Shown piece by piece: positions 5,513 to 64,000 of a DNA stretch of 64,000 nt (within the stretch, counting starts at the first letter, position 1; every line of letters starts with the position of its first letter). Source of the DNA: Escherichia coli (GTDB lineage: Bacteria; Pseudomonadota; Gammaproteobacteria; Enterobacterales; Enterobacteriaceae); assembly GCF_003334385.1 (NCBI RefSeq), contig NZ_QOWN01000018.1; one strand, given 5' to 3'. Made by a program: the position numbers and the translations under genes. Below the pieces are notes generated by a model, which did no database searches, was not told the origin of the DNA, and saw nothing but the letters and a program-made list of their open reading frames with translations.

Positions 5513-6559
5513 TTATTGTTTAACGGACCAGCGTACCGTTTCCCCGGCGAGGAATGGCACCAGCGTGTCATCAGTCAGTGCGATGCTTTCAGCAACCTGT
5601 TGCTCTTCACGTACCAGTTCGATGAATGTGTCGTTGACCGGCAACCCATAGAACTGCGGGCCGTTTACAGAACAGAATGCTTCAAAGTGCTGCAAAGCAT
5701 TCATTTCTTCAAAGACGGTAGCGTAACTGCCCAGCGCGGTTGGGGCGTTGAAGCAGCCCGCGCAGCCGCAACTGCTCTCTTTGCGATGACGTGCATGTGG
5801 CGCAGAATCCGTACCGAGGAATACTCGATTAAAACCGCTGGCGACCAGTTCACGCAATGCCTGTTGGTGAATATTACGTTTGAGGATGGGTAGACAATAC
5901 AGGTGCGGACGCACGCCTCCAACCAGCATATGGTTGCGGTTAAACATCAGATGCTGCGGAGTGATGGTGGCAGCCAGCCGTTCATTTCCGTCACGGACAT
6001 AGTCGGCAGCATCTTTGGTGGTGATGTGCTCAAAAACGACTTTCAGCGCAGTCAGGCGCTGGCGCAGAGGTTCCATCACGCTTTCTATAAAGCGCGCTTC
6101 ACGATCAAAAATGTCGATATCTGCATGTGTCACTTCACCATGCACCAGTAGCGGCATACCGATTTTTTCCATGCGCTCAAGTACCGGCATGATTGCGTCA
6201 ATTGACGTCACGCCGTGGCTGGAGTTAGTGGTTGCGTTTGCCGGGTAAAGTTTTGCAGCGGTGAACACGCCTTCGTTAAATCCGCGCTCCAGCTCATTAG
6301 GATCCAGCGAATCTGTTAAATAACAGGTCATCAATGGGGTGAAATCGTGCCCGGCAGGTACGGCGTCAAGAATACGCTGGCGATACGCCACGGCAGCCTC
6401 AACGGTGGTCACGGGCGGAGCCAGATTGGGCATTACGATAGCCCGTCCATAAATTTCGCTGGTATATGGCACGACAGTTTTTAACATGTCGCCATCGCGG
6501 AGGTGAAGGTGCCAGTCGTCTGGGCGGCGGATCTTTAATACCTGGGATGGTGCAGTCAT
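5513..6559 (-). CDS. pyrC: Dihydroorotase
   Basis: ORF track 348 aa; HxH metal-binding motif DWHLHLRDG near N-terminus. Confidence 0.95.
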
Positions 6560-6610
6560 TAATCTCTATGCTCCGGCTGAAGGGATGTTTTTGCCGGACA
6601 CAAAGGATAA

Positions 6611-6626
6611 GCGGAAACGTTTTCCT
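6611..6626 (-). promoter_or_regulatory. Candidate PurR operator in the pyrC leader
   Basis: GCGGAAACGTTTTCCT, near-palindromic, 13 of 16 matches to the PurR box as recalled; about 55 bp upstream of the pyrC ATG. Confidence 0.5.
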
Positions 6627-6633
6627 TTGCACG

Positions 6634-6659
6634 AAAAATAAAGGGCGCGAATGCGCCCT
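6634..6659 (-). terminator. Rho-independent terminator of yceB
   Basis: Hairpin AGGGCGC-GAAT-GCGCCCT with adjacent A-tract on plus strand (U-tract on the minus transcript). Confidence 0.6.
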
Positions 6660-6664
6660 CGTGA

Positions 6665-7225
6665 TTAATCAGTAAATGGAATGACAATTTCGCCTGGCTT
6701 CACTTCAATGCCTTTCGCCAGTTTTTTCGCCATTGCTTCGCCCTGGCTGCCATCTTCGCGCAGGACGTAAGCAGGTTGCTGGTTAAAGTAATTGCGTAAT
6801 GCCTGGTTCAAATAGGGAAGCAACGTTTGCATCACCGTTTGCATTTTTTCCGGTTGTACCGTCGCATCGACCACTTCCATCTCTTTCAGGAAGATCGCAC
6901 CTTTTTCTTTATCAAACACGGGCAGCGCTTTCAGCTTCAGTTTCATGGTCGCTTTCTGACTACCGAACAGGGAGTTCATGTCCAGATTGGCGTCTCCGGT
7001 TAGGGTAACCTTATTCGGCTCTTCGCGACCAATTTGGCTGGTCAGGTTTGTCAGAACAATATGGGCGTCAGCCACGCCGGGTAAACCGATATCTTTTGAG
7101 AAATTATTATGTTTCGCAAGCGACTGGTTAATTTCTTGTTCGGTGATGGTGTATTGGGTGAGTTGATTACAGCCAACGAGCAGGCCACTGACGATCAATG
7201 CAGCGGCAAATAAAAACTTGTTCAT
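6665..7225 (-). CDS. yceB: DUF1439-family lipoprotein
   Basis: ORF track 6665..7426; start placed at ATG 7225 giving MNKFLFAAALIVSGLLVGC lipobox signal, 186 aa. Confidence 0.85.
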   Translation of the reverse strand: MNKFLFAAALIVSGLLVGCNQLTQYTITEQEINQSLAKHNNFSKDIGLPGVADAHIVLTNLTSQIGREEPNKVTLTGDANLDMNSLFGSQKATMKLKLKALPVFDKEKGAIFLKEMEVVDATVQPEKMQTVMQTLLPYLNQALRNYFNQQPAYVLREDGSQGEAMAKKLAKGIEVKPGEIVIPFTD

Positions 7226-63471: not shown

Positions 63472-64000
63472 ATGCTGTCGCGTCGGGGTCATCGGTTAAG
63501 TCGTTTTCGTAAAAATAAACGCCGCCTGCGCGAGCGTTTGCGTCAGCGTATTTTTTTCAGAGATAAAGTGGTGCCGGAAGCAATGGAAAAACCAAGAGTA
63601 CTCGTACTGACAGGGGCAGGAATTTCTGCGGAATCAGGTATTCGTACCTTTCGCGCCGCAGATGGCCTGTGGGAAGAACATCGGGTTGAAGATGTGGCAA
63701 CGCCGGAAGGTTTCGATCGCGATCCTGAACTGGTGCAAGCGTTTTATAACGCCCGTCGTCGACAGCTGCAGCAGCCAGAAATTCAGCCTAACGCCGCGCA
63801 TCTTGCGCTGGCTAAACTGCAAGACGCCCTCGGCGATCGCTTTTTGCTGGTGACGCAGAATATCGACAACCTGCATGAACGCGCAGGTAATACCAATGTG
63901 ATTCATATGCATGGGGAACTGCTGAAAGTGCGTTGTTCACAAAGTGGTCAGGTTCTCGACTGGACAGGAGACGTTACCCCAGAAGATAAATGCCATTGTT
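63472..64000 (+). CDS. cobB: NAD-dependent protein deacylase (sirtuin) CobB, N-terminal part; gene runs off the window end
   Basis: Hand-translated frame from ATG 63472 ([25 protein letters not shown]...[28 protein letters not shown]), open to the window end. Confidence 0.85.

Follow-up and report, generated by a model that had tools for sequence, protein, structure and literature searches.

A conserved and very probable PurR operator in the promoter spacer of Escherichia coli pyrC

Organization of the pyrC control region

The sequence studied here is a 16-bp near-palindrome located between the genes yceB and pyrC in a 64-kb window (by which we mean the whole stretch of E. coli DNA that was analysed). 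The features of the region are listed in Table 1. On the plus strand, positions 6611-6626 read GCGGAAACGTTTTCCT, with letters exactly as the first-pass annotation had given them; read in the direction of pyrC, that is on the minus strand, the sequence is AGGAAAACGTTTCCGC, and we refer to it as the PUR box. It is an imperfect palindrome around a central CpG, in which five of the eight half-site positions are self-complementary. Its inner part, GNAAACGTTTNC, has a single match in the 64 kb, where shuffled sequences give an expectation of 0.16. The distance of about 55 bp to the start of pyrC that had originally been proposed is a fair estimate: the proximal edge of the box is located 51 nt, and its centre about 59 nt, from the ATG (A at 6559).

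Table 1. Features of the yceB-pyrC region in window coordinates.
Feature	Coordinates	Strand	Basis
yceB, gene upstream of pyrC	6665-7225		annotated
yceB intrinsic terminator, GAGGGCGCATTCGCGCCCTT plus T-run, bounding the pyrC control region	6641..6660	-	terminator scan
-35 hexamer, GTGCAA	6627..6632	-	inferred from sequence; 94-98% conserved across genera
PurR operator (PUR box) of pyrC, AGGAAAACGTTTCCGC	6611..6626	-	PWM 16.5 bits, conservation, literature
-10 hexamer (Pribnow box), TATCCT	6604..6609	-	sequence; 6 nt before CCGG, per PMC6524683
CCGG cluster, alternative transcription start sites	6594..6597	-	invariant in 12/12 genera; mechanism PMC6524683
PyrC leader element, Rfam RF02372	6560..6609	-	68.7 bits vs gathering score 50
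pyrC coding sequence, dihydroorotase, 348 aa	5513..6559	-	ORF, RefSeq annotation, homologues

The pyrC promoter was placed on the basis of the sequence, the description given in PMC6524683 and conservation. A scanner for consensus sigma-70 promoters called no promoter between 6450 and 6750, since neither pyrC hexamer comes close enough to consensus. GTGCAA at -35 is a weak match to TTGACA, and the -10 hexamer is TATCCT, TATGAT or TATGCT, depending on the genus. For the start sites within the CCGG cluster we use the C7/G9 numbering, which we take to be that of Liu & Turnbough (1994). In the direction of transcription the control region consists of GTGCAA, the 16-bp box (6626-6611), one T, TATCCT, TTGTGT and CCGG. 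The 17-nt spacer between GTGCAA and TATCCT is filled by the PUR box, which spans roughly -29 to -14 when counted from the C7 start. A repressor bound in this spacer is able to block transcription, as it is when it acts as a roadblock further downstream. PurR motifs are generally found between the -35 and -10 elements, as is the case for 14 out of 32 promoters (Cho et al. 2011, PMC3159470).

The region downstream of the box matches the Rfam model of the PyrC leader. In the transcript, CCGGC (6597-6593) and GCCGG (6577-6573) form a hairpin that covers the Shine-Dalgarno sequence GGAG (6574-6571), and the energy calculated with ViennaRNA is -8.1 kcal/mol for the C7 (C-start) transcript versus -3.0 kcal/mol for the G9 (G-start) transcript. 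No change is seen in either arm of the stem across 12 genera; the loop differs in sequence and in length (about 15 to 32 nt). According to the published mechanism, a high CTP/GTP ratio causes transcription to start at a C located 6-7 nt past the Pribnow box, giving an mRNA with two additional C residues that make a 5' hairpin possible, by which the ribosome-binding site is masked, while at a low CTP/GTP ratio transcription starts at a G and the pyrC mRNA is translated (PMC6524683). The match to RF02372 runs from 6609 to 6560 and does not include the 16-mer at 6611-6626, which is located 2 nt upstream of it. As the box lies wholly ahead of the start sites and is not covered by the Rfam leader, we conclude that it is a promoter-spacer operator and not a leader element. 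The first-pass annotation was thus wrong in placing it in the pyrC leader, and on the same two grounds the box is unlikely to act as a leader or riboswitch-type element, a reading that we discarded.

Match to the PurR motif and conservation of the box

The window was scanned with a PurR position weight matrix (PWM) based on the 28 motif instances from ChIP-chip regions reported by Cho et al. 2011 (PMC3159470). Since pyrC is absent from these 28 sites, the matrix is independent of the site tested. AGGAAAACGTTTCCGC scored 16.5 bits and was the top PurR match on both strands of the 64 kb. The score is within the leave-one-out range of the 28 true sites (7.4-25.1 bits), eight of which are outscored by the pyrC box. 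Fourteen of the 16 matrix columns give a positive score, the central CG is present, and the sequence conforms to the consensus ACGNAAACGTTTGCNT, a 16-bp imperfect palindrome on CpG. The sole strongly unfavourable base is the C at position 13 (-4.9 bits), where G is found in 27 of the 28 ChIP sites. A resemblance to the PurR operator had been proposed at the outset, together with a matrix scan as a check; the scan supports it, and so does the conservation of the footprint across Enterobacteriaceae that is presented below.

The weight of the score depends on the length of DNA considered. The exact per-position probability of 16.5 bits is 1.2e-6, so that 0.15 matches are expected in the whole 64-kb window. 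An equal score is reached somewhere in 14-29% of random 64-kb windows (29% for first-order Markov windows), as it would be if the near-palindrome had arisen by chance and had no function, and over the whole window the matrix score alone is therefore weak evidence. For the ~105-bp yceB-pyrC intergenic region, however, the expectation is only ~2e-4. In addition, the site is conserved in 11 genera while its flanks have diverged, and published binding and genetic data exist (PMC3159470, PMC6245113). On the strength of the conservation and the literature we discarded a chance palindrome, which we regard as a most improbable explanation. The second- and third-best PurR matches of the window (63528-63543, 13.9 bits, and 27670-27685, 13.4 bits) are located inside the coding sequences of cobB and rne, respectively, and are at chance level, 0.7-0.9 such matches being expected per window.

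Conservation was analysed with two sets of pyrC loci. The first was collected, taking one genome per species, with a degenerate 10-residue pattern of the coding sequence, which was chosen so as not to bias the upstream region; it contains mostly non-enteric bacteria, with three enteric loci among the matches listed, and was used as negative control. The second set consists of contigs encoding PyrC homologues from named Enterobacteriaceae. The relatives listed have at least 88% identity, so that the enteric comparison stops short of more distant Enterobacterales (Yersinia, Serratia), Vibrionales (Vibrio) and Pasteurellales (Pasteurellaceae).

The box was kept in 11 of the 12 Enterobacteriaceae genera aligned, the exception being Phytobacter. 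It is carried by Escherichia coli, E. albertii, Citrobacter, Superficieibacter, Salmonella, Klebsiella, Enterobacter, Lelliottia, Yokenella, Pseudescherichia and Trabulsiella. Its sequence in the 11 genera is A(C/G)GAAAACGTTT(C/A)CGC, with 14 invariant positions out of 16 and PWM scores of 16.5-17.1 bits. In the 12-genus alignment the box is 91-95% and the hexamers are 92-98% identical to E. coli; identity falls to 63% in the upstream flank, to 62% in the leader loop and to 34% in the spacer between the Shine-Dalgarno sequence and the ATG. Spacers of sigma-70 promoters are not normally constrained in sequence, and the conserved footprint thus argues for a bound factor. The gap between box and -10 hexamer is always 1 nt, whereas the distance from box to ATG ranges from 49 to 66 nt across genera, which indicates that the box is positioned relative to the promoter and not to the coding sequence. 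Among the matches listed, none of 115 pyrC loci from other bacteria contained a PUR box upstream of the gene (up to 250 nt each; maximum score 11.4 bits), a control set that includes one doubtful locus, L047, from a metagenome-assembled genome (MAG) labelled as Klebsiella. The box is therefore conserved among orthologues of its own family and absent from the other loci.

Within the species, the site is embedded in 401 bp that match MG1655 at 100% identity and are present in all 5426 complete E. coli genomes, 2503 of which are only 95-99% identical over this stretch; the RefSeq annotation at the site reads 'pyrC | yceB' across these genomes. A 36-mer centred on the box is retained in 5381 of the 5426 genomes. 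The exact 28-nt word across the box is missing in 45 of the 5426.

In Phytobacter (L128:556-803, a contig of JGI 3300021384) an insertion lengthens the yceB-pyrC intergenic region by ~100 nt compared with the other genera and takes the place of the -35 hexamer and of some 12 nt of the PUR box. Scanning of the 250 nt upstream of the Phytobacter pyrC gene gave a best PWM score of 0.0 bits. The -10 hexamer, the CCGG start cluster and the hairpin are kept. Judged from its sequence, Phytobacter would represent a natural loss of PurR control. As the box is lacking and the rest of the control region is kept, PurR control appears to be dispensable in at least one lineage.

Published PurR control, half-sites and occupancy in vivo

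A passage in Cho et al. 2011 (PMC3159470) describes direct repression of pyrC by PurR as 'experimentally determined', citing Choi & Zalkin 1990 and Wilson & Turnbough 1990, and credits in vitro binding of PurR plus corepressor at pyrC to Choi & Zalkin 1990. The same study reports that deletion of purR alters pyrC expression. Charlier et al. 2018 (PMC6245113) liken PurR repression of pyrC and pyrD to the three- to fourfold effect seen at carAB P1, and put it far below that of the pur genes. Direct repression by PurR being stated in both papers (PMC3159470, PMC6245113), the connection drawn in the first-pass annotation between this pyrimidine gene and the purine repressor agrees with the literature. 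The effect of PurR on pyrC is small. In their work of 1990, Choi and Zalkin and Wilson and Turnbough reportedly used gel shifts and DNase I footprinting and observed ~twofold repression that was lost upon mutation of the box; footprint coordinates and fold-repression for pyrC are taken here from secondary citations. The pyrC operator described in E. coli K-12 (Choi & Zalkin 1990, J Bacteriol 172:3201; Wilson & Turnbough 1990, J Bacteriol 172:3208) is the same locus with the same sequence, without any difference. It has been known since 1990, and the present analysis adds nothing to that knowledge.

We conclude with high confidence that the 16 bp at 6611-6626 are the operator through which PurR acts on the pyrC promoter of E. 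coli. For this assignment the sequence, matrix score, promoter position, conservation and Rfam leader match come from the present analysis, and PurR binding and repression come from the literature. The central CG and the A/T-rich inner positions of the box are common to LacI-family operators, and it could accordingly be argued that the site is the operator of another regulator of this family that recognizes a AAACGTTT core (e.g. RbsR or CytR), its likeness to PurR sites being incidental. However, the outer bases A1, G3, C14 and G15 match PurR-specific columns of the matrix, and the RbsR consensus, GCGAAACGTTTCGC, agrees by eye with only one of three positions in each flank. Moreover, the published experiments name PurR (PMC3159470, PMC6245113). 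An operator of a different LacI-family protein is hence very unlikely.

The half-sites of the pyrC box are AGGAAAAC and GCGGAAAC. A GCAAAC-type half-site is present on at least one side in 27 of the 28 ChIP-detected sites, whereas none was found in the pyrC box of any of the 11 genera, which has neither the G13 nor the C4 of a strong half-site. Klebsiella and Pseudescherichia have A at position 13 of the box (6614) and the others C; G occurs there in none of the 11 genera. A GCAAAC half-site is typical of strong sites and not strictly defining. The operators of pyrD (CGGAAAACGTTTGCGT) and purF (AAGAAAACGTTTGCGT) are also 16-bp PUR boxes, and their left half plus core, GGAAAACGTTT, is identical to that of pyrC. 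These two have G at position 13 and T at position 16, whereas the pyrC box has C at both, and it is due to these replacements that it lacks a strong GCAAAC half-site. The missing half-site fits a weak pyrC operator, and judging by the 11 genera the operator appears to be conserved in this weak form. It is conceivable, though we hold it with reserve, that selection maintains the pyrC operator as a deliberately weak PurR site. Should that be so, purine control would amount to a ~twofold trim that does not override the CTP/GTP switch located 15 nt downstream. Alternatively, the non-consensus bases may be constrained by promoter function, as the box is at the same time the -35/-10 spacer.

The ChIP-chip analysis of Cho et al. 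2011 (PMC3159470) recovered 13 of 15 previously known PurR regions. PurR was detected at pyrD and purF, but not at pyrC or glnB, either with or without adenine, which the authors left unexplained (PMC3159470). A plausible reason for the miss at pyrC would be low affinity. Several known weak PurR sites became visible by ChIP only with adenine (PMC3159470), indicating that the sensitivity of the method was limiting. A different reading of the negative result is that the box is a genuine operator in vitro which is essentially unoccupied in vivo, so that PurR control is negligible and the sequence is conserved for other reasons, e.g. properties of the spacer. This reading draws on the lack of ChIP-chip signal at pyrC under both conditions, on the absence of the GCAAAC half-site found in 27 of the 28 detected sites, and on the fact that Phytobacter dispenses with the box. 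It is difficult to reconcile, however, with the invariance of 14 of the 16 spacer positions in 11 genera, which is unusual for sigma-70 spacers, and with the observation that all substitutions at the remaining two positions leave the score at 16.5-17.1 bits. In addition, the pyrC transcript responds to deletion of purR in the very study that gave the negative ChIP-chip result (PMC3159470). We therefore consider an unoccupied operator improbable, and retain the assignment of the box as the PurR operator of pyrC. The evidence that counts against this assignment comprises the ChIP-chip miss, C13, the lack of a GCAAAC half-site, the weak significance over the whole window and the loss in Phytobacter.

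Proposed regulation and comparison with related systems

PurR, a dimer of the LacI family, binds DNA together with its corepressor, which is hypoxanthine or guanine. When purines are plentiful, PurR carrying hypoxanthine or guanine would bind the pyrC box and, by filling the spacer, would compete with RNA polymerase and hinder its binding or the formation of the open complex, probably through steric occlusion. The expected outcome is a mild purine-dependent drop in the initiation of pyrC transcription, and the small size of the effect would follow from weak affinity. Such purine control would be layered on the stronger pyrimidine-dependent control of translation exerted by start-site switching at the CCGG cluster just downstream.

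The PUR box and the PyrC leader (RF02372) adjoin each other in the same control region and together set the expression of pyrC. They differ in that the leader is an RNA hairpin which senses the CTP/GTP ratio, whereas the box is a protein operator that is not transcribed. The gene pyrD resembles pyrC in being a pyrimidine gene with weak PurR control and CTP/GTP-dependent start-site switching. The trimming of pyrC and pyrD by the purine repressor is a textbook case of cross-pathway regulation that balances the supply of purine and pyrimidine nucleotides. Its operator was found again here starting from raw sequence, which indicates that real operators can be recognized in a first-pass annotation. 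Two points may be mildly useful: the apparently conserved weak form of the operator, as a possible explanation of the ChIP-chip miss, and the natural loss of the box in Phytobacter.

A number of atypical pyrC loci were encountered. The pyrC promoter region is present on a plasmid-labelled record in five E. coli assemblies. In locus L047, from the MAG labelled Klebsiella pneumoniae (CAMDRJ010000024.1), the DNA upstream of the gene is GC-rich and non-syntenic and contains no yceB, box or leader hairpin; this locus is either a mis-binned contig or a second dihydroorotase-like paralogue; it was set aside as an enteric pyrC locus on account of this unrelated GC-rich context. Finally, two proteins (P0003 and P0020, of 440 and 425 aa) are predicted DinI-PyrC fusions (PF06183 + PF01979), and one of these two database entries is labelled as from the fungus Astraeus odoratus. 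Faulty gene calling at the neighbouring genes pyrC and dinI, or contamination, probably accounts for both fusions.
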